Counted from the whole stretch's first letter, positions 2,318 through 60,348 are shown. The stretch is DNA of 63,962 nt, filler included, from an uncultured bacterium (GCA_964506785.1; 3 parts of 3 records of this genome joined end to end with filler, not necessarily neighbours in it); one strand, 5' to 3'. The notes: generated by a model from the sequence alone, not told the origin. Numbers and translations: made by a program.

Positions 2318-2668
2318 ATGAAAGAAAATAAAACTGAGATTTCCAAAGAAATCAAAGAATTTAAAAGTTCCTTAGAGAAGATTCGCCGGGAAGAACTTTT
2401 GGCCGAAGAGCAATTAACTAAAGCCATCCTTCAGGCTAAAGAGACTATTCTCCGCGCCAGGGAAAAAAGTGAAGCTTTGATTGAGGAAAAGAAAATCGAA
2501 GGGAAAGAAGAGGCCTCATTACTGCTTAAAAAGGCAGAGGATGAAACTGGAGCCCGTTCAGAAGAATTAAGGCGGGAGGGAGAAAAAAGAAAAAAAGGAC
2601 TGGCCCAAAAAGCCCGTCCGAATATGGATAAAGCGATAGAGTCGGTGATTAAGGAAATTATGGAGTAA
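2318..2668 (+). CDS. V/A-type ATPase peripheral stalk subunit G/H
   Basis: 116-aa E/K-rich coiled coil ending N-M-D-K-A-I-E-S-V-I, immediately upstream of subunit I. Confidence 0.75.
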   Translation: MKENKTEISKEIKEFKSSLEKIRREELLAEEQLTKAILQAKETILRAREKSEALIEEKKIEGKEEASLLLKKAEDETGARSEELRREGEKRKKGLAQKARPNMDKAIESVIKEIME

Positions 2669-2675
2669 AAAGTAG

Positions 2676-4661
2676 ATGGCAATTGCGGAGATGAAAAAAA
2701 TTCATTTGGTTGGGCACCAGCATATTGAAAACCGGGTGACCCAGCTGCTCCATCACTTAGGAGTAACGCAGATTATAGATATCAGGGAAGAAAATGAAGA
2801 ACTTAGGCCGGAATCTTCCGGGGAAGAAAAAAAATTAGAAGAAAGGCTCGCCCAGATAAATAGAATCCTCGCATTTTTAAGCCAATACGAAAAGAGTAGT
2901 TTCGTAAAAGGCCTCTGGGACAGTTTCTTCCCGGCAAAGGCATATTTTGCCAAGGAAGAGGCACGTCATATTTTGCGGAGTTTCTCAGAATTAGAAGCGT
3001 ATCATGACTTTAAAGCTTTAGACGAAAAAATAGAATTAATTAAAATAAAACGGGGGGAGTTGGAAGAAGAGAAAAAAAATCTTCTTGGATATTTTCGATT
3101 TCCTCTGGCAAAAAAGGATTTGGCCCCGACTAAAGAAACCGGGATAATCTGGGGGGTAATTCCCAAAAAAAGTTTTCTTAAAATCGGACCGGTTTTAAAT
3201 AAGAAATTTAAAAAAATATGGGTTAAAACTTTCCAGGCGACAGGGAAAAATTTATTTCTGATAGTCGTTTTCCTAAAGGATAGGCACGAGGATATAAGCG
3301 AATTTTTACGTAGTTCAAATTTCCAATTTGGGAATTTTTCTAGAAGCCAGGTGGGGACTCCTCAGGAACGGCTTGAAGAAATTGCCCGAGAAAAAGAATC
3401 TTTAGGATTAGAGGAAGAAAAGATAAACAAAGATATAGGGCGTCTTCTTTCCCAAAAAGCCAAACTTCTTCTTCTTCACGATACTATCTCCAGCCGCCTT
3501 GAACAAAGGTATATAAGCCGGAGTTTTTCGCAAACCAGGGCAACCTTTATTCTGGAGGGATGGGTAAAGGAAAGTGAGTTAAAAATCCTCAAGGAGAAAT
3601 TAATTAAAATTTTCCCGGAATTAGAAATAGTTGTCAGCTCACCTCTGGCTGATGCCCAGCCGCCGATTGCCTTTCAAAATCGTTCCTGGATTAAACCCTT
3701 TGAATTTATTACCCGCCTCTATGGAGCTCCGGCTTACCGCAGCTTTGACCCTACGCCCTTTTTGATGCCATTTTTTGCTCTTTTCTTCAGTTTGTGTATC
3801 AGCGATGCGGGATACGGGTTGATTTTACTGCTTTTGGGCTGGTGGCTATTAAAGAAAGTAAAGCTGGAAAGAGGGCAGAAAATAATTTTTAGGGTTTTGC
3901 TCCTCTCCGGTTTTCTCGCCATTATAGTCGGAGTAATAACAGGCAGTATTTTTTGTCTTGACTTTGAACAGCTGCCTCTTTGGCTTGGATTCCTTAAAGG
4001 ATTTCGGAACAAACTCATGATTTTCGATCCGTTAGAGAATATTATGCTTTTTTTGGGTATCTGTCTGGGGCTGGGTTTAGTGCAGATTTATTTCGGCATC
4101 TTATTGAAGGTAATCCTCCAGCTAAAAAGGAAAAGGATAATTGAAGCCCTTTTTCAGGAACTTCCCTGGCTCTTTTTAATTTCGGGTTTAATCCTTTGGG
4201 CAGCTGTATCTATGGGCGGATTAAAGGATTCACTATTGCCTCTGGCTAAAATTTCTACTTCCGGCGGAGCGGTTATTTTGTTCCTTTTTGCCGGCCGGGG
4301 GACAAAAAACATATTTTTGCGTCTGGGGAAAGGTCTCTTTACCCTTTATGGAACGGTGGGGATGCTGGGAGATATCCTCTCTTATACCCGGCTTTTAGCC
4401 CTTAGTTTAGCTACGGTGGTTATCGGCCTGGCCGTCAATGTTATTGCTGCTTTATTTTCCAGAGTACCTTTTATCGGCATTCTTTTAGGGTTAGCCGTGG
4501 TTATTTTTGGACACGGTTTTAATCTTTTCATTAACAGCTTGAGCGGATTTGCTCATACTTTACGCCTGCAGTTCGTCGAGTTTTTTACCAAGTTTTACGA
4601 AGGCGGCGGAGAATTCTTCCAGCCTTTCCAGATGGAGAATAAATTTACCAGGGTGGAGTGA
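2676..4661 (+). CDS. ntpI: V/A-type ATPase subunit I (a)
   Basis: MAIAEMKK start, LEGWV, PFEFITRLYGAPAY..DPTP, SDAGYG, GDILSYTRLLAL (essential Arg), HTLRLQFVEFFTKFYEGGG. Confidence 0.96.
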   Translation: MAIAEMKKIHLVGHQHIENRVTQLLHHLGVTQIIDIREENEELRPESSGEEKKLEERLAQINRILAFLSQYEKSSFVKGLWDSFFPAKAYFAKEEARHILRSFSELEAYHDFKALDEKIELIKIKRGELEEEKKNLLGYFRFPLAKKDLAPTKETGIIWGVIPKKSFLKIGPVLNKKFKKIWVKTFQATGKNLFLIVVFLKDRHEDISEFLRSSNFQFGNFSRSQVGTPQERLEEIAREKESLGLEEEKINKDIGRLLSQKAKLLLLHDTISSRLEQRYISRSFSQTRATFILEGWVKESELKILKEKLIKIFPELEIVVSSPLADAQPPIAFQNRSWIKPFEFITRLYGAPAYRSFDPTPFLMPFFALFFSLCISDAGYGLILLLLGWWLLKKVKLERGQKIIFRVLLLSGFLAIIVGVITGSIFCLDFEQLPLWLGFLKGFRNKLMIFDPLENIMLFLGICLGLGLVQIYFGILLKVILQLKRKRIIEALFQELPWLFLISGLILWAAVSMGGLKDSLLPLAKISTSGGAVILFLFAGRGTKNIFLRLGKGLFTLYGTVGMLGDILSYTRLLALSLATVVIGLAVNVIAALFSRVPFIGILLGLAVVIFGHGFNLFINSLSGFAHTLRLQFVEFFTKFYEGGGEFFQPFQMENKFTRVE

Positions 4662-4662
4662 G

Positions 4663-5058
4663 TTGAGAAAGGGAGAAAAAGGGTTTTATCTTTTAGAATT
4701 ATTAGTGGCTATTTTACTTTTTGCCATTGTCATTACAGCCGTTTTACAGAGTATCATAGTCAGTAACAACTGGCTGCATAACCTTTGCAATCGAACCAGC
4801 GCCTTTGCTTTGGCTCAGGAGAAAATGGAAGAGGTTTTGAGTGGTTCCTATATCCAGATTATCCCGGAAAATTATCCGATAGATCATCCGGTTATTACCT
4901 TTGCCAACCCAGAATTTCCTGATAATGATTTAGTCGGAACCAGGGAAGTAACCATTATTCCCTTTGAGTCATATAAGGAAGTGGCGGTAAATATCAGCTG
5001 GCAGGAAAAGGGAAGAGAAGAATCCGAATCTATCTATTCTCTGGTTTCAGTAAGGTGA
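4663..5058 (+). CDS. Type IV pilin-like protein (PilV/GspI-like minor pilin)
   Basis: Probable TTG start at 4663, 1 nt after the ntpI stop; class III signal RKGEKG|FYLLELLVAILL (G-1, F+1, E+5); A-x-x-L-A-Q-E-K-M-E-E helix; V-x-V-x-I-S-W C-terminus. Confidence 0.85.
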   Translation: MRKGEKGFYLLELLVAILLFAIVITAVLQSIIVSNNWLHNLCNRTSAFALAQEKMEEVLSGSYIQIIPENYPIDHPVITFANPEFPDNDLVGTREVTIIPFESYKEVAVNISWQEKGREESESIYSLVSVR

Positions 5059-5064
5059 GAGAAC

Positions 5065-5125
5065 AGGTTACCAGGTGAAAGGTGATAGGTAATAGGGAAA
5101 AACCGATAAACTTTAACTGGTGACC
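5065..5125 (+). repeat. 7-nt-period AGGT repeat forming an imperfect hairpin
   Basis: AGGTTACC-AGGTGAA-AGGTGAT-AGGTAAT-AGGGAAA; GGTTACCAG (5066-5074) pairs with CTGGTGACC (5117-5125). Confidence 0.65.
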
Positions 5126-5138
5126 CGGGACGAAATCT

Positions 5139-5654
5139 ATGCTTAGAAAAAAAGGATTAACCCTGGTTGAACTAATGGTCGTTTTAGTCCTGATCATTTC
5201 TGTTATCGGGGTGTTCCTTGCCAGTTATATATTGGCTGAGACTTCCTGGCAGGCTACTGCCGCCCGGTTGGTAGTTCAGCGTCACGCAGAAATTGCTTTT
5301 GAAAAAACAACCCGGGCTTTACGAAAAAGCCGGAATCCCATAATTGAAGACGCCGGGGATTCTATCAGCTTTCAAAATATTGTTGGCACTGAATCAAAAA
5401 TTTATCTGCAACCCAGCGGAGAAACAATTAACGGGAAGCCGGTATATAACCTTATTTTTGACGACGATACCAGTTCTCCCGGGGATGAAAGAATAATTGC
5501 CCGTTCGCTTCTCAAGCAGGACGGATTTAATTTTTTTACTGCTGACGGAGACGATATTAAAAAAATTTTTATTGCCTATCGGGTCAGCGATACCAACCCT
5601 CGCGATGGATTTCAGATACTTGACCTTTATACGATGGTTAAAACGAGGAATTAA
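5139..5654 (+). CDS. Type IV pilin-like protein (PilW/GspJ-like minor pilin)
   Basis: MLRKKG|LTLVELMVVLVLII prepilin cleavage/N-methylation motif; ends at V-K-T-R-N. Confidence 0.87.
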   Translation: MLRKKGLTLVELMVVLVLIISVIGVFLASYILAETSWQATAARLVVQRHAEIAFEKTTRALRKSRNPIIEDAGDSISFQNIVGTESKIYLQPSGETINGKPVYNLIFDDDTSSPGDERIIARSLLKQDGFNFFTADGDDIKKIFIAYRVSDTNPRDGFQILDLYTMVKTRN

Positions 5655-6935
5655 ATGGGGATAAAAATGAAGGGGGCTGGCAGAAAGGCAATTTCTAAAA
5701 AAGGCAATGTTATGATTATTGGAATTCTCTTTGTAGTTATTGTGATAATCAGCCTCATTGGCCTTTTGACTTTAGTCAGTAACGAGATGGATATGACCCG
5801 AAAAATGAACGATTCCGCCCGGGCCCTTTATATTGCTGAAGGCGGCGTTAATCGGGCGAAAGTTTGGCTGACTTCGCAAGCTTACCCACCCATAGGGATA
5901 GAGCCTTTTGAAATATTTACCGATGAAAATTTAGGCACGGGAAACTATAGCGTCGTTATTGATCCTGAAGATGGCAATCCGGGACGCTGGATTAAGCAAT
6001 ATGGACTTCTTTCTACCGGCAAGATTCTGGCAACTGAGGTTTCACGTTTGGTTAAAGTGATTTTACAGACAGAAACCTTTGCCAGTTTTGCCTATTTCAC
6101 TGATAATGAATATAACCCTAATGTCGGAGCAAAGATTTGGTTTGTTGGCTGGGATGTTTTAGACGGGCCGACACATTCAAACAGTCAAATCAACATTTAT
6201 GGCAGCCCGACGTTTAAAGGACTGGTTAGCTCGACCGCCGATTCCTTTTATTATTATCACGGCGGGCCGCCAGAAGATAACCCTGATTTCCAGCAAGGAT
6301 ATACGCTGGGAATAGAAAATATTGAGATGCCGACGAGCACAGAAAACCTTAAAGAGACTGCTCAATCCGGAGGGGTAGTTGTCAGCGGCGACAGCACCGT
6401 AGTTTTGAATAGTAACGGCACCGTCAGTTATAGTGAAGAAGGCCAGTGGTACGAATTTAATCTCGAAGAGACTAACGGTGTAATGTACGTAAATGGCAGC
6501 GCTTTTGTTCAAGGGACCTTAAAAGGGGCTTTAACTTTGATTAGTTCAGATGATATGTATGTTACCGATGATGTTCGCTATTCGACTGACCCCGGGGATC
6601 CATCTTGTGATGACCGTCTGGGTTTAATCTCTGATAAAAATGTAGTCATTCCCTATACGGCCCCGAATGATTTGGAGATTGATGCGGCCATTATGGCTTT
6701 AGACAGCTCTCTTTATTTTCAGTACTACCCCTATTATATGAAAGGAACCTTAACTGTTTATGGCGGTATTATTCAGGAATATCGGGGCCCGGTGGGGACT
6801 TTTTATGCATCCTCAGGGACCAAAGCCAGCGGCTATAATAAAGATTATAGCTATGATTACCGTTTTTTAGATACCCCGCCGCCCTATTTCCCAGGAACAG
6901 AACGTTATTCGCAGATTAGTTGGTGGGAAGAATAA
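5655..6935 (+). CDS. PilX-like pilus assembly protein with large C-terminal domain (DUF4900-like)
   Basis: SKKG|NVMIIG hydrophobic helix without E5, ARALYIAEGGV (PilX-N signature); C-terminal FAYFTDNE, GPTHSN, GTLTVYGGIIQ, GYNKDYSYDYRF..PPPYFP. Confidence 0.8.
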   Translation: MGIKMKGAGRKAISKKGNVMIIGILFVVIVIISLIGLLTLVSNEMDMTRKMNDSARALYIAEGGVNRAKVWLTSQAYPPIGIEPFEIFTDENLGTGNYSVVIDPEDGNPGRWIKQYGLLSTGKILATEVSRLVKVILQTETFASFAYFTDNEYNPNVGAKIWFVGWDVLDGPTHSNSQINIYGSPTFKGLVSSTADSFYYYHGGPPEDNPDFQQGYTLGIENIEMPTSTENLKETAQSGGVVVSGDSTVVLNSNGTVSYSEEGQWYEFNLEETNGVMYVNGSAFVQGTLKGALTLISSDDMYVTDDVRYSTDPGDPSCDDRLGLISDKNVVIPYTAPNDLEIDAAIMALDSSLYFQYYPYYMKGTLTVYGGIIQEYRGPVGTFYASSGTKASGYNKDYSYDYRFLDTPPPYFPGTERYSQISWWEE

Positions 6936-7007
6936 ATGTTCCCTGTTTTGTGGGGACAGGGTAGAATATTGGAGAAGGAAACGAGAGGAGAGATAGGAAA
7001 AGCTGTC

Positions 7008-7379
7008 ATGAGAAGGAAGGTAACCAGAACCCTTATTACCATTGAATTAATTATCCTCATCTTGGCCATAATCGGGCTGGCTTGGCTATTTATTATTTTC
7101 AGGGTTCCCCAGGAAATTGGAGAGGTTATAGAAGATGAATCCAAAGAAATGGTGGGGATAGAGGAGGTTTTAACCGAACCCCAAAAAGGGGAAAAAGAGA
7201 TAATAAGAGTTTTTCCTGAGGGAGATAAGATTATAGATAAAATAAAGATTCCGCCTCCCAAAGGTTTCCCACAGACACCCGAAGAAGAAAAGAAGTTTAT
7301 GGAAAAACTTAAGAATCCCCCCGAACCAAAAAAAGGGGAAGAAGTAAAGATTAAAGGAGAATCAGCTATCGCATTTTAG
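7008..7379 (+). CDS. Single-TM membrane protein with degenerate pilin-like N-terminus
   Basis: MRRKVTRT|LITIELIILILAII (basic leader, E at +5, hydrophobic helix, but Thr at -1), followed by an E/K/P-rich tail; ATG at 7008. Confidence 0.6.
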   Translation: MRRKVTRTLITIELIILILAIIGLAWLFIIFRVPQEIGEVIEDESKEMVGIEEVLTEPQKGEKEIIRVFPEGDKIIDKIKIPPPKGFPQTPEEEKKFMEKLKNPPEPKKGEEVKIKGESAIAF

Positions 7380-7419
7380 CTGTTTTAAAAAAGGAGAACA
7401 GGCAAGAAGGGAGGAAGAA

Positions 7420-7890
7420 ATGTTTGGAATTGCTTTATCTATTTTTGGGGCCGCTTTGGCCGTAGCTTTATCGGGTATTGGTTCCAGTATCGGTGTCGGG
7501 TTAACCGGACAGGTTTCAAGCGGGGTGATGAGCGAAGACCCCAAATCTTTCGGGAAGCTCCTTCTATTAAACGTTTTACCGGCCACTCAGGGTGTCTATG
7601 GCGCAATTGTGGCCTTTCTAGTCATGTTGAAAATTGGTTTTCTGGGAGGAGAATCAGTAAGCCTGACTAATATTCAGGGGTTACAGATTTTTCTCGCTTG
7701 CCTACCCATAGCTTTAGCCGGATTGTTTTCGGCCGTCCATCAGGGGAAAGTTTGTGCCTCCGGAATAAGAATGGTTTCTAAACAGCCCCAGGAAGTAGGT
7801 AAAGCCCTGGTCATCGGGGTCTTAGTCGAATTTTATGCCATCTTGGGACTATTGGTTTCGATTTTATTCCTTTTTAATATGCAGCTCTGA
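7420..7890 (+). CDS. ntpK: V/A-type ATPase proteolipid subunit K (4-TM, Na+-binding signature)
   Basis: GIGSSIGVG, LPATQGVYG, HQGKVCASG, VEFYAILG; strong RBS GGAGG. Confidence 0.96.
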   Translation: MFGIALSIFGAALAVALSGIGSSIGVGLTGQVSSGVMSEDPKSFGKLLLLNVLPATQGVYGAIVAFLVMLKIGFLGGESVSLTNIQGLQIFLACLPIALAGLFSAVHQGKVCASGIRMVSKQPQEVGKALVIGVLVEFYAILGLLVSILFLFNMQL

Positions 7891-7927
7891 ATCAAAAAGT
7901 AGAAAGTGTCCCCTATTTGGAGAAAAA

Positions 7928-8509
7928 ATGGCTCTGGAAGATATTTTAGAAAAAATTAAATCTGATGCCGAAAGAGAAGCCGCTAAAGTCAAAAAAGAGG
8001 CTTTAAGTTCGGCCAGACAGATAACCGATGAAGCGAGAAAAAAAGGAGAGTTTTTAAAGAAAGAGATTTTGTTTAAGGCTGGCGAAGAGGCTGCCAAAAT
8101 TAAAGAAAGGATTCTTGTTAATACCCAGGTTCAAATAAAAAAGGATATTCTTTCTTTTAAACAAAAGTTTATCCAGGATGTTTTGATAAAAGCGATGGAT
8201 AAAATGAGAAAGTCAAAAGATTTATATCAGGCATTCCTTGAAAAAACCTTGTTAGAAACAGCCCTTGGGAACGAAGAGATTATTTTATCTGCCCAAGACC
8301 GGAGGGAATTTTCTAATAAGTGGTTGGAGGGATTTAATAAAAAGCATCACCTTAAATTAAACTATTCTAAAAAAATCGGAAAAATTTCCGGAGGGATGGT
8401 TATTCGAAGCGGTAAAAAAGAGATTAATGCCGGTCTCGAAATCTTAATCAAAGAAATTCGGGAGAAACGCGGCGCGGAAATAGCCAAAATTCTTTTTGGA
8501 GAATTATAA
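7928..8509 (+). CDS. ntpE: V/A-type ATPase subunit E
   Basis: MALEDILEKIKSDAEREA coiled coil, ISGGMVI, EIAKILF; ATG at 7928 after GGAG. Confidence 0.92.
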   Translation: MALEDILEKIKSDAEREAAKVKKEALSSARQITDEARKKGEFLKKEILFKAGEEAAKIKERILVNTQVQIKKDILSFKQKFIQDVLIKAMDKMRKSKDLYQAFLEKTLLETALGNEEIILSAQDRREFSNKWLEGFNKKHHLKLNYSKKIGKISGGMVIRSGKKEINAGLEILIKEIREKRGAEIAKILFGEL

Positions 8510-9519
8510 TGTTTTATTCGTTTCGGGAAGATTTGCGTTATGCCTATAGTCTGGGTGAGCTCAGGGTAAGGGAGAATAAAATGCTCGGTCAGCGGGATTT
8601 CTCCCGTTTATTATCTACCGCCAATCTTGAAGAGATGACTCTTATTTTAAGTGAAGCTGGATATAAAACACCGGAAAGGGCGGAGGAGATTTTTTCTAAC
8701 CCCGATGATTTCTTATCTTCTAATACAGCCATTTTGTATAAAAGGCTGAAGGAAATAGGGCATCATCCAGAAATTTTCAACCTTTTTATTATTCGCTATG
8801 ATTTTAGAAATTTTGGAGTTCTCCTTAAAAAAGAAATAGCCGAAGGAAGTCTGGATGACCGGGTTTTAAAGGAAAATTTTTTAATTAACCTGGGGCTGCA
8901 GGGGCTGGATAAACTCCAGGAATCATTCAAGAAGAAAAATTATGAGATTTATCCAGAGAACATGGCCGAGATTTTCTCAAGAATTGAAAAGAAAATAAAA
9001 AAAGAAAACCCGGATAAAATCAGCCAGACCTTAGATAGAGAATATTTTAAGTTAGCTTTAGAGGCAAGTTCCTCTAATGATTTCTGCCGGTATATTTTTA
9101 ATATATTTGTCGATTTCGCTAATTTAGAAAGCGCCTTGAGGATTAAAAATATAAAAAGGGAATCTAAGTTCGGCGAGTTTTTTATTGAGGGAGGGAAAAT
9201 CGCAAAGAATGATTTTTTAGAATTTTTAGGCGGCCGTTTGAATCTAATTAATCTTCTTTCTCGTTATTCATATGAAAAGCTATTTTCTCCATCTCCGGGA
9301 GAAAAAGAGGAAGCCCTTTTAGGGGAGAAGAAATTGGACGATTTTTTAATCGAGGTTCTAAAGGAAGCGAGATTTTCTTTTATTGGCTTAGAGGCAGTCG
9401 TTGCCTATTTATTGGTTAAGGAGTTGGAGATGAAAAATATCCGCCTGATTCTTCAGGGGAAGAAAGCCGGCCTGACGGAAGAAGAATTACGGCCTGATTT
9501 GCGGGCGACGTATGAATAA
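8509..9519 (+). CDS. ntpC: V/A-type ATPase subunit C (d)
   Basis: YAYSLGELRVRENKML, YDFRN, LDREYF, VAYLLVKELEMKNIRLILQGK. Confidence 0.93.
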   Translation: MFYSFREDLRYAYSLGELRVRENKMLGQRDFSRLLSTANLEEMTLILSEAGYKTPERAEEIFSNPDDFLSSNTAILYKRLKEIGHHPEIFNLFIIRYDFRNFGVLLKKEIAEGSLDDRVLKENFLINLGLQGLDKLQESFKKKNYEIYPENMAEIFSRIEKKIKKENPDKISQTLDREYFKLALEASSSNDFCRYIFNIFVDFANLESALRIKNIKRESKFGEFFIEGGKIAKNDFLEFLGGRLNLINLLSRYSYEKLFSPSPGEKEEALLGEKKLDDFLIEVLKEARFSFIGLEAVVAYLLVKELEMKNIRLILQGKKAGLTEEELRPDLRATYE

Positions 9520-9814
9520 AATGGCTGTTATTGCCGAACCTTGGACAGCTTGGGGCTTTGCTGGATTGGGCCTATCTGTCTATCCGGCAGAGAATGAAAA
9601 AGAAGCCCAAGATATTTTTAAATCAATGGAAGAGGATTATGCCATTATCTTTGTCAGTGAGACATTTTACCAGGTGGTCAAGAAAAGGTTTGAATCTAGG
9701 CTCAAGGATAAATCACCTCTAATTTGTTTAATTCCTAACAATAAGGAAAGAAAAAATCTGGGCCATCAAATAATCCGGGAAGTGGTCCGCCAAGCCGTCG
9801 GTTTTGAAATTTGA
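9512..9814 (+). CDS. V/A-type ATPase subunit F (NtpG/AtpF)
   Basis: KMAVI..GFAGLG, YAIIFVSE, LIP, VVRQAVGFEI. Confidence 0.93.
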   Translation: MNKMAVIAEPWTAWGFAGLGLSVYPAENEKEAQDIFKSMEEDYAIIFVSETFYQVVKKRFESRLKDKSPLICLIPNNKERKNLGHQIIREVVRQAVGFEI

Positions 9815-9894
9815 CAAAGGAGGCTCAACCAGGGAAGTCGGATTTTCTTTGGTGGTGCGATACAAGGATTATTTATTAGAAGGGAAGGTTCATC

Positions 9895-11664
9895 ATGGGT
9901 ATTAGCGAAAAGAAAAAAGGGAAAATTGCTAAGGTCTCTGGTCCCTTAGTGGTGGCTGAGGGGATGTATCAGTCACGGATGAATAATATGGTTTGGGTAA
10001 GCGAACAGAGCTTGGTTGGAGAAATTGTCGAGTTAAAAGGTGATCTTGCTTCCATCCAGGTTTATGAAGAGACCGCCGGTATCGGACCAGGTGAGCCGGT
10101 AGAAGATTTAGGTGAACCTCTGAGTATTGAATTAGGGCCGGGATTAATCGGACATATTTTTGACGGTATCCAAAGACCCTTGGAGGTTATTCGAGAAAAA
10201 GCCGGTGATAATATTCCCCGGGGACTTTTAGTACCCAGTCTTGATCGGGGAAAGAAATGGGCATTTTCCCCTCAGGTAAAAAAAGGGGATAAAGTCGAGG
10301 CAGGAGATATTATTGGCTTAGTTCAGGAGACCTCACTCGTGGAGCACCGAATTTTAGCGCCGCCTGGAATACAAGGAGAGATAATTGAGATAAAGGAAGG
10401 AAACTTCACTGTTGAAGAGGTAATTGCTGAGGTAAAGGGTCCCAAAAAAACAGTTGGAATAAAAATGATACAGCGCTGGCCGGTAAGGAAAGAAAGGCCC
10501 TATCGGGAAAAATTGATTCCCCGGGGACCTTTAATTACTGGCCAAAGGGTAATTGATACACTGTTCCCTTTAGCTGAAGGCGGGACTGCCTGTGTTCCCG
10601 GGCCGTTCGGTTCGGGCAAAACCGTCATTCAGCACGCCTTGGCTAAATGGGTCAATGCCGAAATCATTGTTTATGTCGGTTGTGGTGAAAGAGGGAATGA
10701 AATGACCGATGTTCTCCTGGAGTTTCCCAAGCTTCTTGATCCTTATTCTGGAGAACCCTTGATGAAGAGGACTATTTTAATTGCTAATACCTCTAATATG
10801 CCGGTAGCCGCTCGCGAAGCGTCTATTTACACCGGGGTAACCATTGGGGAATATTTTCGCGATATGGGATATAATGTTGCCTTAATGGCTGATTCCACCT
10901 CGCGCTGGGCTGAGGCCTTGCGGGAAATTTCGGGAAGATTGGAAGAGATGCCGGGAGATGAAGGCTATCCGGCTTATTTAGGCACGAGAATTGCTGATTT
11001 TTACGAACGAGCCGGCCTTTCAAAATGTCTGGGGAAAGATGAACGTCTCGGGTCACTCAGTATTATCGGCGCCGTCTCTCCCCCGGGGGGAGATTTAACC
11101 GATCCGGTGGTTCAGGGGACTTTGCGGGTGGTTAAGGTTTTCTGGAGTTTAGAGGACAAACTGGCTTATGAGAGGCATTTCCCGGCGATAAATTGGCTAA
11201 ATAGCTATTCCTTGTATCAGTCTATGGCTGATGAATATTTTAAAAAAGAGGTTAATGCCGAATTCGTAAAAATGAGGAAGGATGCCATGTTAGTTCTTCA
11301 AAAGGAATCAGAGCTTCAAGAAATTGTAAAACTTATTGGTGTTGATGCCCTTTCTCCCGAGGACCGTCTGACTTTAGACTTGGCTAAATCAATTAGGGAA
11401 GATTTTCTTCATCAAAATGCTTTCCATGAAATTGATACCTACAGCTCTTTAAAAAAACAGTATTGGATGTTAAAACTAATTCTATTTTTGGGTGAAAAAT
11501 GCCAGACCGCTCTTTCTCGAAAGGTGCCTCTGGAAAAACTCCTAAATTTAAAGGTCAAAGAGGATATTGCTCGACTCAAGCTTATTCCGGAAGAACAGTT
11601 AGATAAGATGGAGTTGGTTTTAAATAAGATAGTTAACGAGATTGAAGCTTTTACTAAAGAATAG
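9895..11664 (+). CDS. ntpA: V/A-type ATPase catalytic subunit A
   Basis: PGPFGSGKT Walker A, GCGERGNE, ANTSNMPVAAREAS, PGDEGYPAYL. Confidence 0.98.
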   Translation: MGISEKKKGKIAKVSGPLVVAEGMYQSRMNNMVWVSEQSLVGEIVELKGDLASIQVYEETAGIGPGEPVEDLGEPLSIELGPGLIGHIFDGIQRPLEVIREKAGDNIPRGLLVPSLDRGKKWAFSPQVKKGDKVEAGDIIGLVQETSLVEHRILAPPGIQGEIIEIKEGNFTVEEVIAEVKGPKKTVGIKMIQRWPVRKERPYREKLIPRGPLITGQRVIDTLFPLAEGGTACVPGPFGSGKTVIQHALAKWVNAEIIVYVGCGERGNEMTDVLLEFPKLLDPYSGEPLMKRTILIANTSNMPVAAREASIYTGVTIGEYFRDMGYNVALMADSTSRWAEALREISGRLEEMPGDEGYPAYLGTRIADFYERAGLSKCLGKDERLGSLSIIGAVSPPGGDLTDPVVQGTLRVVKVFWSLEDKLAYERHFPAINWLNSYSLYQSMADEYFKKEVNAEFVKMRKDAMLVLQKESELQEIVKLIGVDALSPEDRLTLDLAKSIREDFLHQNAFHEIDTYSSLKKQYWMLKLILFLGEKCQTALSRKVPLEKLLNLKVKEDIARLKLIPEEQLDKMELVLNKIVNEIEAFTKE

Positions 11665-11687
11665 ACTGACCGAATATTCTAGAAGAT

Positions 11688-11760
11688 AAATGACCAATAT
11701 GCAATTACTCAATGACGAATGGAATTCATTTCTTCATTCGGCATTTGATAATTTGGCATT
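11688..11760. repeat. 7-nt-period inverted-repeat hairpin between ntpA and ntpB
   Basis: AAT units at 11689, 11696, 11703, 11711, 11718 mirrored by ATT units at 11736, 11743, 11751, 11758; CAATGACGAATGGA pairs with TTCATTCGGCATTT. Confidence 0.65.
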
Positions 11761-11781
11761 AAAAGGAATAAGGAGATAACA

Positions 11782-13167
11782 GTGCTAAAGGAATATTTGA
11801 CAATTCAGGAGATTGTTGGGCCGCTCATTCTTGTCGATGAAGTTGAAGGCGTCAAATATGAGGAGCTGGTTGAAATAGAACTTCCTAACGGAGAAATCCG
11901 GAAAGGAAAGGTGTTAGAGGTTAATCGGGATAAAGCCCTGGTTGAGGTTTTTGGCGGCACTAGCGGTATCGACATCAAAAATACCCGTTTAAAATTTTTG
12001 GGGAAGAGAATGGAACTGACGGCTTCGCTGGATATGTTGGGAAGAATTTTTGATGGATTGGGCAACCCCATTGACGGCGGTCCAGCGATACTTTCTGAAA
12101 CCAAGTTAGATGTTAACGGTATTCCGATTAATCCCTCGGCCCGGGATTATCCTCAGGAATTTATACAAACCGGTATTTCGGCTATTGATGGACTTAATAC
12201 GTTGGTCCGTGGACAGAAATTGCCGATATTTTCTGCCTCAGGACTTCCCCATATTCGTCTTTCCGCCCAGATTGCCCGTCAGGCTAAGGTTTTAGGCAAA
12301 GAGGAAAAATTCGCCGTAGTATTTGCCGCCATGGGGATTACTTTTGAGGAGGCAAATTTTTTTATCGACGATTTTAAGGAAAGCGGGGCTATTGGCAATG
12401 TCGTTCTTTTTATCAATCTGGCTGATGACCCGGCCATTGAAAGGATTGCTACTCCCAGGGTAGCTTTAACCGCGGCAGAATATTTAGCTTTTCGGCAGAG
12501 CATGCACGTTTTGGTTATTTTGATTGATATGACTAATTATTGTGAAGCCCTTCGGCAGATATCGGCGGCTCGACGGGAAGTACCGGGCCGGCGGGGATAT
12601 CCCGGCTATCTCTATACGGATTTGGCTACCATTTACGAACGAGCCGGCAGGATTCGCGGCAATTCCGGTTCCATCACTCAGATTCCGGTATTAACGATGC
12701 CGGAAGATGATAAAACCCATCCAATTCCTGATTTAACCGGATATATTACTGAGGGACAGATAATTTTGAGCCGCGAACTCAATCGAAAGGGAATATATCC
12801 GCCGATTGATATTTTACCTTCTCTTTCTCGTCTGAAGGATAAAGGGATTGGTAAAAATAAGACCCGTGAGGACCACGCCGATCTTTTTAATCAGCTTTTT
12901 GCCGCTTATGCCCGGGGTAAAGAAGCCTATGAGCTGGAGAAAATTTTAGGGAAAGCTGCCTTGACAGAGATGGATTTGAAATATTTAAAATTTTCCAATC
13001 TTTTTGAGGTTGAATATATTCAACAGAGAGAGAATGAAACCCGCCGTATTTCCGAAACCTTAGATTTAGGCTGGAAGTTGCTTTCTCAGTTTCCTAGAGG
13101 GGAACTTAAGCGGATTCGCCCGGAATTCATTGATAAATATCTTGGTCCCCTTCTCTCGAGCCGTTAG
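11782..13167 (+). CDS. ntpB: V/A-type ATPase subunit B
   Basis: GTG start; [44 protein letters not shown]. Confidence 0.98.
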
Positions 13168-13187
13168 AAAAATTTTCTCTAACGGGG
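13161..13187. repeat. Minimal copy of the CCGTTAGA...TCTAACGG element; contains the ntpB stop codon
   Basis: CCGTTAGA-AAAATTTTC-TCTAACGG-GG; TAG at 13165-13167. Confidence 0.7.
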
Positions 13188-13221
13188 CTAACCAAGCACA
13201 AATTAGGAGTTTTCTTCCAGG

Positions 13222-13842
13222 ATGCGATTGAATGTTAATCCGACCAGGATGGAATTGTCAAAGTTAAAAAAAAAGTATTTCTTTGCCAAGCGGGGACATA
13301 AGCTGCTTAAAAACAAAGAAGATGAGTTGATGAGAAGGTTCCTCAATTTTATCGACCAGGATAAGGTTCTAAGGCAGGAGATGGAAGAGAAACTCTTCAA
13401 GGCCTTAAAGATTTTTGCTAAGGGGGCGGCTGCTATCCCTTTAGCCGAGTTAAAGGAAGCTTTATTCTTCAGCGAAAGAAAGAGCCGGGTAGAGGCAACA
13501 CCGGAGCGGATTCTTAATTTAGAAGCAAATAAATTTTCTCTAAAAGTCCAAGGAGACCTCCATCGATATAGATTTCTCTCTACTAATGCCCGGTATGACC
13601 GGGCGTTAATTTTGTTAGACGAGGTTTTGCCTTTGATGATTGAAACAGCTGCTTTAGAGGGTAGCCTTATTCTCGTTGCCCAGGAGATTGAAAGGACACG
13701 CCGTCGGGTTAATGCCTTGGAATATCGCTTGATTCCTGATTTAGAAGATACCATTAAGTATATCAGCATGAAACTGAGTGAGATGGAAAGAGGAAATCTT
13801 TCTCGGTTGATGCGGCTTAAAGAACTAAGCGGAACTATTTAA
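13222..13842 (+). CDS. ntpD: V/A-type ATPase subunit D
   Basis: NPTRMEL, RGHKLLKNK, EIERTRRRVNALE, LSEMER. Confidence 0.96.
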   Translation: MRLNVNPTRMELSKLKKKYFFAKRGHKLLKNKEDELMRRFLNFIDQDKVLRQEMEEKLFKALKIFAKGAAAIPLAELKEALFFSERKSRVEATPERILNLEANKFSLKVQGDLHRYRFLSTNARYDRALILLDEVLPLMIETAALEGSLILVAQEIERTRRRVNALEYRLIPDLEDTIKYISMKLSEMERGNLSRLMRLKELSGTI

Positions 13843-14600: not shown

Positions 14601-14629
14601 TTGACAGTTAGGGTAGGGTTTGATATAGT
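14601..14629 (+). promoter_or_regulatory. Sigma70 promoter of eno
   Basis: TTGACA (14601-06), 17 nt, TATAGT (14624-29), with TGn extended -10. Confidence 0.8.
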
Positions 14630-31470: not shown

Positions 31471-31570
31471 NNNNNNNNNNNNNNNNNNNNNNNNNNNNNN
31501 NNNNNNNNNNNNNNTTAATTAATTAANNNNNNNNNNNNNNNNNNNNNNNNNNNNNNNNNNNNNNNNNNNN
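31471..31570. other. Artificial contig-joining linker
   Basis: N44-TTAATTAATTAA-N44 (stops in all six frames). Confidence 0.98.
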
Positions 31571-60248: not shown

Positions 60249-60348
60249 NNNNNNNNNNNNNNNNNNNNNNNNNNNNNNNNNNNNNNNNNNNNTTAATTAA
60301 TTAANNNNNNNNNNNNNNNNNNNNNNNNNNNNNNNNNNNNNNNNNNNN
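60249..60348. other. Artificial contig-joining linker
   Basis: N44-TTAATTAATTAA-N44. Confidence 0.98.

Follow-up and report, generated by a model that had tools for sequence, protein, structure and literature searches.

Why should genes for type IV pilins lie inside the operon of a rotary ATPase? The question is raised by a stretch of 63,962 nucleotides (here called the window) from the genome of an uncultured bacterium (GCA_964506785.1, hereafter G000). Between ntpI and ntpK, the genes for membrane subunits I and K of a V/A-type ATPase, the window carries four open reading frames (ORFs), named P1 to P4 in their order, which together form a 2.7-kb cassette. In this work, we found that the first two genes encode small pilins and the third a protein of the DUF4900 family, that the arrangement exists in the DNA, and that the cassette is an insertion relative to the sister genera. 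It is probably a minor-pilin tip or priming module, which would be expressed by read-through and translational coupling and would serve pilus machinery encoded elsewhere in the genome. The ComZ-like/DUF4900 minor-pilin module is of a known type; its location is unusual but lineage-specific.

A first-pass annotation, made from the sequence alone, had taken the two genes at the head of the cassette for type IV pilins, and this identity stands. P1 (positions 4663-5058, + strand), a GspI/PilV-like minor pilin, opens with the class III signal peptide MRKGEKG/FYLLE, where the slash marks the cleavage site; the protein reads MRKGEKG/FYLLELLVAILLFAIVITAV. The corresponding signal of P2 (5139-5654, + strand) is MLRKKG/LTLVE, and the protein reads MLRKKG/LTLVELMVVLVLIISVIGVF. 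Both show the pilin signature of a short basic leader, Gly at -1, Glu at +5 and about 20 hydrophobic residues. P1 exceeded the cut-offs of the N_methyl models (PF07963, 22.8 bits vs 21.2; TIGR02532, 17.0 vs 16.3), whereas P2, with its canonical signal, fell 0.1 bit short of the first (21.1 vs 21.2) and below the second (13.7 vs 16.3). Matches to the narrower NCBIfam equivalogs stayed below cut-off for P1 (GspI 29.0 vs 44.35, PilV 18.6 vs 52.2, GspJ 16.4 vs 64.85) and for P2 (GspH 21.7 vs 80), and a match of P1 to ComGE was also sub-threshold. In 8 related cassettes the leading gene could be aligned with P1 (18-30% identity), and in 7 the second gene with P2 (14-24%). The structural model of P2, of low confidence (pLDDT 57), shows a long N-terminal helix followed by beta-sheet.

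The third gene gives the cassette its character. P3 (5655-6935, + strand; 426 aa) reached 38.5 bits against the DUF4900 model (PF16241, gathering threshold 29.4), while the PilX_N model (PF14341), also proposed for it in the first-pass annotation, scored 16.2 against 25.5; some P3 homologues do carry PilX_N. Thus, the family assignments proposed at first hold for P1, P3 and, at the borderline, P2, and fail for PilX_N and for the fourth gene, which has no family. P3 matched neither GspK nor any other of the GspI/GspJ/GspK and PilV/PilW/PilX equivalogs of NCBIfam. Its N-terminus (KKG/NVMII...) is a hydrophobic helix without Glu5, as in tip subunits of the GspK type. The C-terminal domain, first described as some 300 residues rich in Tyr, Asp and Gly, comprises 287 residues with 9.4% Tyr, 7.7% Asp and 9.8% Gly.

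A model of P3 built on a 22-sequence alignment (pLDDT 89.4, pTM 0.81) shows a helix of 59 residues (16-74), a sheet (85-141), a solenoid (approximately 147-400) and a last strand (419-425) that returns to the pilin domain. Compared with the Protein Data Bank (PDB), this model retrieved ComZ (6qvi) as its top match (Foldseek E 1.8e-8; VIA-align Z 16.2 over 300 residues). The solenoid resembled the FfIBP-type ice-binding beta-solenoids (Z about 14.9, rmsd 3.2, 192 residues), and the pilin part resembled minor pilins and GspI/XcpV-type pseudopilins (Z 7.4-10.9). P3 has therefore, in its predicted structure, the ComZ-type architecture of a pilin domain with a large beta-solenoid set before the last strand, and may be a ComZ/GspK-type tip subunit of a type IV pilus.

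In its published description, ComZ of Thermus thermophilus consists of a GspK-like pilin domain and an FfIBP-like solenoid, and is argued to be able to sit only at the pilus tip, binding DNA together with PilA2 (PMC6561018). The competence pilin locus is pilA1-pilA2-pilA3-comZ-pilA4, which, like the cassette, places small prepilin genes around a large pilin with a late-inserted solenoid (PMC6561018). ComZ and P3 share the resemblance of the solenoid to FfIBP. They differ in having no detectable sequence similarity and in size (about 500-520 residues in the solved ComZ chains, 426 aa in P3), and the Thermus locus, unlike that of P3, is not within an ATPase operon. ComZ is argued to be a DNA receptor; DNA binding by P3 is putative. 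No experimentally studied member of DUF4900 was found in the literature, the sole mention found concerning an unrelated topic.

The cassette also recalls the minor-pilin tip complexes GspI-GspJ-GspK of type II secretion and PilV-PilW-PilX/FimU of type IVa pili, in which, as here, small, medium and large subunits are encoded by three consecutive genes and the large subunit lacks Glu5. GspI/XcpV-type pseudopilins superpose on the pilin part of P3 with Z of 7.4-7.7, and P1 is sub-threshold to GspI and PilV. On the other hand, GspK carries an alpha-helical insertion where P3 has a beta-solenoid, and no GspH/FimU-like or PilY1-like gene is present in the cassette.

For the fourth gene, the name of a pilin cannot be upheld. 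P4 (6936-7379, + strand) had been read as a degenerate pilin with the signal T/LITIE, and we dropped this reading: Thr, not Gly, stands at -1, neither Pfam nor NCBIfam holds a family for it, and only P4 itself was found among 5.8 billion clusters. Its Atlas scores were below 0.8, and comparison with the fourth gene of the most similar four-gene cassette (at locus L077, see below) revealed no similarity (E 0.16). With a single hydrophobic segment and a tail rich in Lys, Glu and Pro, P4 is an orphan single-pass membrane protein; its true start may be the ATG at 7009.

Around the cassette, the operon is that of a bacterial V/A-type ATPase (ntpG/H-I-K-E-C-F-A-B-D), with the full and intact set of subunits in the usual order; the difference is that the I-K junction is split by 2.7 kb of unrelated genes. 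From 2318 to 13842 every gene lies on the + strand, and the order first described (G/H, I, the four ORFs, K, E, C, F, A, B, D) was recovered with its coordinates. The first gene (2318-2668) encodes an AhaH-like (AhaH/G-like) small coiled-coil subunit of the peripheral stalk, which scored 26.9 bits against the NCBIfam AhaH model (cut-off 48.5) and keeps its position in both sister genera, G001 and G002, at 47% and 46% identity. It is followed by ntpI (2676-4661; Pfam V_ATPase_I 88.1 bits), which is full length relative to its homologues in the same two genomes (660 aa) and matched the NCBIfam subunit I models with E down to 7e-103, below their equivalog cut-offs. Beyond the cassette come the proteolipid gene ntpK (7420-7890; Pfam ATP-synt_C 112.9 bits; NCBIfam subunit K 173.3, cut-off 127), ntpE (7925-8509), ntpC (8509-9519), ntpF (9512-9814), ntpA (9895-11664), ntpB (11782-13167) and ntpD (13222-13842). 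Subunits I, K, E, C, F, A, B and D all scored above the Pfam cut-offs. Within the cassette the gaps are 0-1 nt at 3 of the 5 junctions: as first noted, P1 starts one base past the ntpI stop and P2 abuts P3, and P3 in turn abuts P4. The two spacers measure 80 nt (P1/P2) and 40 nt (P4/ntpK), and ntpK starts after its own GGGAGG ribosome-binding site. Elsewhere in the window, scans for T2SSE, prepilin peptidase and pilin motifs gave no match, in agreement with the earlier statement that it holds no other pilus or type II secretion system (T2SS) genes.

Could the pilin genes have been joined to the operon by assembly or binning, through fusion of a pilin contig with an ATPase contig? The source genome is indeed a metagenome assembly of 112 contigs (1.38 Mb, 91% complete), and the window is a concatenation of three of them (C11, C12 and C86), with runs of N around a TTAATTAATTAA linker at 31471-31570 and 60249-60348, across which features cannot be read. 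The operon and its cassette lie together on C11, the first 31,470 bases of the window. The junctions 4661/4663 and 7379/7420, which the first-pass annotation had singled out for checking, are both bridged by contigs from independent assemblies of public sequencing runs: a single contig of run X4 (4,296 nt) spans 4000-7715 with zero differences to the window, and run X5 contributes three contigs that cross the two junctions. Neither X4 nor X5 carries a flag as a potential source of the genome. In run X1, a possible source, 4000-8200 is covered in one piece, and in the contigs of the four runs compared no joint omitting the cassette is listed. A metagenome contig of 107 kb (L041) shows the same gene order with proteins 99.7-100% identical. 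Moreover, neither GC content nor codon use shows a break in this region, the cassette lying at the 21st-87th percentile of the genome's genes. The cassette between ntpI and ntpK is real DNA, and the probability that it is a product of mis-assembly is negligible.

Whether the arrangement is shared can be judged from the relatives. In the collection searched, the phylum consists of three species genomes (G000, G001 and G002) in three genera of one family; G001 is 88% and G002 89% complete. In G002, ntpI and ntpK are 18-27 nt apart. In G001 the distance is 273 nt; a dispersed hairpin repeat of 95 nt stands there twice in tandem, and no pilin is present. The order of the V/A-ATPase genes is the same in both genomes and in three distant metagenome loci (L070-L072), in which I and K are 75 nt apart. 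DUF4900 was found in one of the three genomes of the phylum (G000), and with P3 as query G001 and G002 gave weak N-terminal matches only, to other PilX-like genes. Relatives with contiguous ntpI and ntpK and the cassette placed elsewhere had been named beforehand as evidence against a functional unit; contiguity was found in both sister genera, the cassette being wholly absent from them rather than displaced. Among the genomes examined the arrangement is confined to this species, and a gain in its lineage appears to be the most parsimonious history.

The repeat in the G001 spacer deserves a description of its own. Its tandem copies lie at L036:6622-6716 and 6726-6810, and further copies were found in G000 (C1:50816-50900, C10:15618-15683 and C2:51719-51797), with 10 matches in G001, 3 in G000 and none found in G002. 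The element forms two hairpins and folds at -40.7 kcal/mol (z -4.69 vs shuffles). Neither the element nor the G001 operon locus matched Rfam (0 matches), and it resembles a small repeat of the REP/MITE kind or else a structured RNA. We also considered this spacer as a relic of the cassette and rejected the idea: it is made up of the two repeat copies, and only about the first 35 nt resemble the start of P1, too short a stretch to decide.

Where, then, do relatives of the cassette normally sit? A search with P3 gave 130 homologues (E <= 1e-10), of which the closest apart from P3 itself is 45% identical, and PF16241 is precomputed on nearly all of the 120 homologues listed; those with a name belong to Omnitrophota, Ratteibacteria, Margulisiibacteriota, Krumholzibacteriota, Eisenbacteria and others. 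A scan of species-representative genomes with a three-sequence alignment as query found 173 relatives, of which the best 80 were examined with up to 8 kb on either side. The closest of these (L074, 47% identity) lies in a string of pilB-like, pilC, two pilins, pilM, pilN, pilO, pilQ, a small pilin, a medium pilin and the P3 homologue. The same three-gene module follows the secretin at L075 (45%, labelled Omnitrophota). At L077 (35%, also labelled Omnitrophota) a stand-alone cassette of four genes (136/147/429/146 aa) has the architecture seen here. The relatives of P3 in genomes G037, G017 and G004 adjoin pilM/N/O/Q. Pilus or secretion machinery was detected in 14 of the 80 loci with the pilus proteins of G000 as queries, whereas the nine ATPase subunits found no V-ATPase gene in any of them (0/80). 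Conversely, none of 32 NtpI loci outside the phylum contained an ORF with a pilin motif. P3 belongs to the DUF4900 'PilX-like' proteins of Omnitrophota, Gemmatimonadota, Ratteibacteria, Margulisiibacteriota and others. Relatives that are 35-47% identical to it stand behind a pair of pilin genes, in many cases after pilQ, and compared with the 80 loci only the present copy has its place in a V/A-ATPase operon.

These counts bear on the two readings that the first-pass annotation had offered, a translocation without functional consequence or a module whose co-expression couples a pilus tip with the ATPase, the latter put forward as an undescribed system. Insertion without functional coupling fits the data; for a coupled pilus-ATPase system we found nothing beyond the adjacency, and the absence of such a neighbourhood from both sets of loci and of the cassette from the sister genera argues against it. 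In its physical or energetic form, coupling would require the pilin-like proteins to sit on or beside Vo (I, K), linking ion pumping to a filament or adhesin. This has in its favour the position between two membrane subunits, the tight spacing and the presence of an orphan membrane protein, P4. However, the same ATPase occurs in the two sister genera with no cassette, and P1-P3 have the ordinary features of pilus subunits, which need PilD and PilB/PilC, encoded elsewhere. In addition, the pilin that G001 carries in its own ATPase operon (see below) lies between the soluble subunits F and A and not between membrane subunits. We consider contact of this kind very improbable.

Nor does the cassette look like a mobile element. 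An insertion sequence, a transposon and an integrative island were considered and rejected, because none of the four ORFs matched a transposase or integrase family in Pfam or NCBIfam, no terminal repeats or target-site duplication flank the cassette (the longest border repeats, inverted or direct, are 11-13 nt and chance-like) and the composition is not anomalous. Promoter-like sites in the region number 24, against 21.4 +/- 4.4 in shuffles, and terminator-like sites 27, against a shuffle mean of 16.4 +/- 4.3; neither kind occurs in the 80-nt or the 40-nt spacer. The initial impression of no integrase, no transposase and no obvious internal promoter was thereby borne out. Because no promoter, terminator or mobility gene was detected and the gaps at 3 of the 5 junctions are 0-1 nt, the cassette is most likely part of the ATPase operon mRNA. 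This operon is presumably expressed, and presumably always so, since no F-type ATPase was found in G000 (PF00006 matched only A, B and Rho), both genes next to the cassette are undamaged, and the ribosome-binding site of ntpK is strong. The V/A-ATPase is the only rotary ATPase detected in the genome.

The strongest promoter-like site of the region lies beyond the operon, at 14601-14629, just upstream of the enolase gene (TTGACA, 17 nt, TATAGT, with an extended TG; 11/12 matches). As judged from this site, the long co-directional string may be broken into transcription units near enolase.

An insertion that is transcribed need not be used, and the cassette might be cargo, decaying or never put to use, which is tolerated as translation of ntpK is not blocked. 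Some features are in line with this: P1 has a weak Shine-Dalgarno sequence and, as its sole start codon, a TTG located one base past the ntpI TGA; P2 is just under the N_methyl cut-off; P4 has no homologues; and the cassette is absent from the sister genera. Against it stand four uninterrupted ORFs, 2.6 kb in total, in a genome of 1.38 Mb, and the undamaged Gly-1/Glu5 signals of P1 and P2. All residues invariant in the 22-sequence family alignment are retained in P3, which also has a confident model, codon use is typical of the genome, and the same sequence recurs without differences in the contigs of several runs. Dead cargo is, in our judgement, quite unlikely.

If the module is in use, the machinery should be found elsewhere, and it is. 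The first-pass annotation had asked after pilD, pilB, pilC and pilQ, and all are present. PilD is represented by a Peptidase_A24 match of 66.6 bits on C4, and five T2SSE-family ATPases lie on C1, C9 and C23. C9 carries a complete cluster of the type IVa pilus (T4aP) kind (pilT, pilB, pilC, five pilins, pilM, N, O, P and Q, then an unrelated gene), with matches to T2SSF, PilM and Secretin. The prepilin peptidase and the PilB/PilC platform thus occur in the same genome as the cassette. The C9 system is a plausible user of the cassette, because it has no tip module after pilQ, the very place in which L074 and L075 have theirs. A T2SS-like cluster on C23 includes a GspK-like gene of its own; another cluster lies on C5, and smaller pilin cassettes occur on C13, C55 and C62. 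A motif scan of G000 gave 27 candidates among about 1,340 ORFs, 22 of them convincing pilins by eye; TIGR02532 matches number 17 in G000, 10 in G001 and 17 in G002.

Two genes of these other clusters may be recorded here. On C5, after four pilin genes, L157:5177-7969 (- strand) encodes a GspK-like minor pilin of 930 aa with a sub-threshold T2SSK match and an HHH_3 motif (E 1.4e-10). The helix-hairpin-helix motif of the HHH_3 type is found in ComEA-type DNA-binding proteins, and the protein may, from its sequence features, be a DNA-binding pilus tip protein. On C23, L156:7146-7799 (- strand) is an ORF of 217 aa without pilin signal among the pseudopilin genes of the T2SS-like cluster.

Based on these data, we propose the following course of events. 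In the lineage of this species, a minor-pilin cassette would have entered the short spacer between ntpI and ntpK and would now be transcribed as part of the ATPase operon mRNA. P1 would be translated by termination-reinitiation after ntpI, and P2-P4 from their own or coupled starts. After processing of P1 and P2 by PilD, P3 would cap the distal end of the fibre, with DNA (as for Thermus ComZ) or a surface as its ligand; P4 may be an accessory orphan membrane protein. The products would be assembled by machinery encoded elsewhere, the C9 cluster being the best candidate, and neither by nor onto the ATPase. The placement itself would be a habit of a small co-directional genome that keeps pilin genes inside housekeeping strings.

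Several points weigh against this account. The promoter scan covered sigma-70-type consensus sites only, which limits what the lack of a promoter can say, and read-through, like the role at the tip, the ligand and the machinery used, is something we infer. The likeness to ComZ is structural only, the P3 family profile having given zero matches to PDB chain sequences at E <= 1. As a tip module for the C9 system, the cassette would have only a plausible partner, this being one of several pilus and secretion systems in the genome. The history is also less certain than the synteny may suggest: over the first 35 nt or so past the ntpI stop, G000 and G001 show about 65% likeness, which could reflect either a spacer common to both or a remnant of P1, and an ancestral presence followed by loss from two sister genera, although less parsimonious, is an alternative to gain with the three genomes at hand.

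The last point concerns the operon of G001, where a second, unrelated pilin, GspG/PilA-like and 173 aa long, occupies the ntpF/ntpA junction (L036:9308-9829) and leaves room for a selected link between pilins and this operon. It is 64% identical to a pilin of the main pilin cluster of G001 (G001:C4:1980-2474) and, because of this identity, is a lineage-specific duplicate by sequence comparison. With random placement, the chance of a pilin in this operon in at least one of two relatives is about 8-9%, a rough, post hoc figure from related genomes, calculated from eight internal junctions, about 6 pilin loci per approximately 1,000 genes in G001 and about 8 per approximately 1,600 in G002. The recurrence of pilins in the ATPase operon of two genera is therefore a hint, not a result.

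Pilins embedded among housekeeping genes are not restricted to the ATPase operon. In G000, one pilin lies between the genes for homoserine dehydrogenase and threonine synthase (C8:26725-27159, - strand; equal to L161:6726-7160), in a string that continues past thrC with a phosphoglycerate-mutase-like gene and aspartate kinase. The corresponding pilins of the sister genera are at L167:938-1300 and L168:1084-1458, so that the order hom-pilin-thrC is conserved in all three genera; in G002 the ATG of this pilin follows directly after the hom stop. On C21 a pilin stands between a gene for a HAMP protein and an NTPase-rsmE-...-secA string, and on C13 a three-gene pilin cassette follows purA.

Such cases invite the idea that the insertion was kept by selection since it ties the tip or priming subunits of the pilus to the sole rotary ATPase, a regulatory link that needs no physical contact. 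In more general terms, pilins would be repeatedly recruited to constitutive housekeeping operons, which spares promoters and keeps pili always on. Different pilin insertions at two junctions of the same operon, in two of the three genera, speak for this, as does the hom-linked pilin, whose conservation indicates that embedded pilins can be long-term stable. The start of P1 one base past the ntpI stop and that of the G002 pilin directly past the hom stop suggest translational coupling, the lack of a detected F-type ATPase makes the operon probably constitutive, and the G001 operon pilin, as a duplicate of a main-cluster pilin, points in the same direction. Nevertheless, each of the insertions in the ATPase operon occurs in a single genus, and the two do not go back to one homologous event. 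Almost all genes here are co-directional in long strings, so that any insertion lands "in an operon", and the chance estimate is only about 0.08-0.09, obtained post hoc from three related genomes. For these reasons we regard a selected coupling, in either wording, as unlikely, and the stronger version, in which pilins are deliberately wired into constitutive housekeeping operons (hom-thrC in three genera, the ATPase operon at two junctions in two genera), as rather doubtful. Were the latter true, pilus tip and fibre subunits would be made in lock-step with core energy metabolism and without promoters of their own. Such "operon-hitchhiking" would suit an always-attached or DNA-scavenging lifestyle, with the ATPase-embedded ComZ-like cassette as its most elaborate instance. 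Among the papers listed in a literature search, none, as judged by titles and abstract openings, dealt with pilins inside ATPase operons.

With the cassette read as an inserted minor-pilin module that serves machinery encoded elsewhere, the case indicates that even a striking adjacency in an operon of the textbook type does not necessarily imply a new machine. The ntpI-ntpK spacer tolerates insertions, having received the cassette in one genus and a short repeat in a second, which bears on the use of V-ATPase synteny for annotation. In the phylum, as represented by its three species genomes, an unusually large part of about 1.4 Mb is given over to systems for pili and secretion, and its pilins, scattered through housekeeping strings, bear on how reduced genomes express surface structures. 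Finally, the proteins of the DUF4900 family, which are widespread in Omnitrophota, Gemmatimonadota and further uncultured phyla, may now be read as ComZ-like tip pilins, which gives this unstudied family a testable role.

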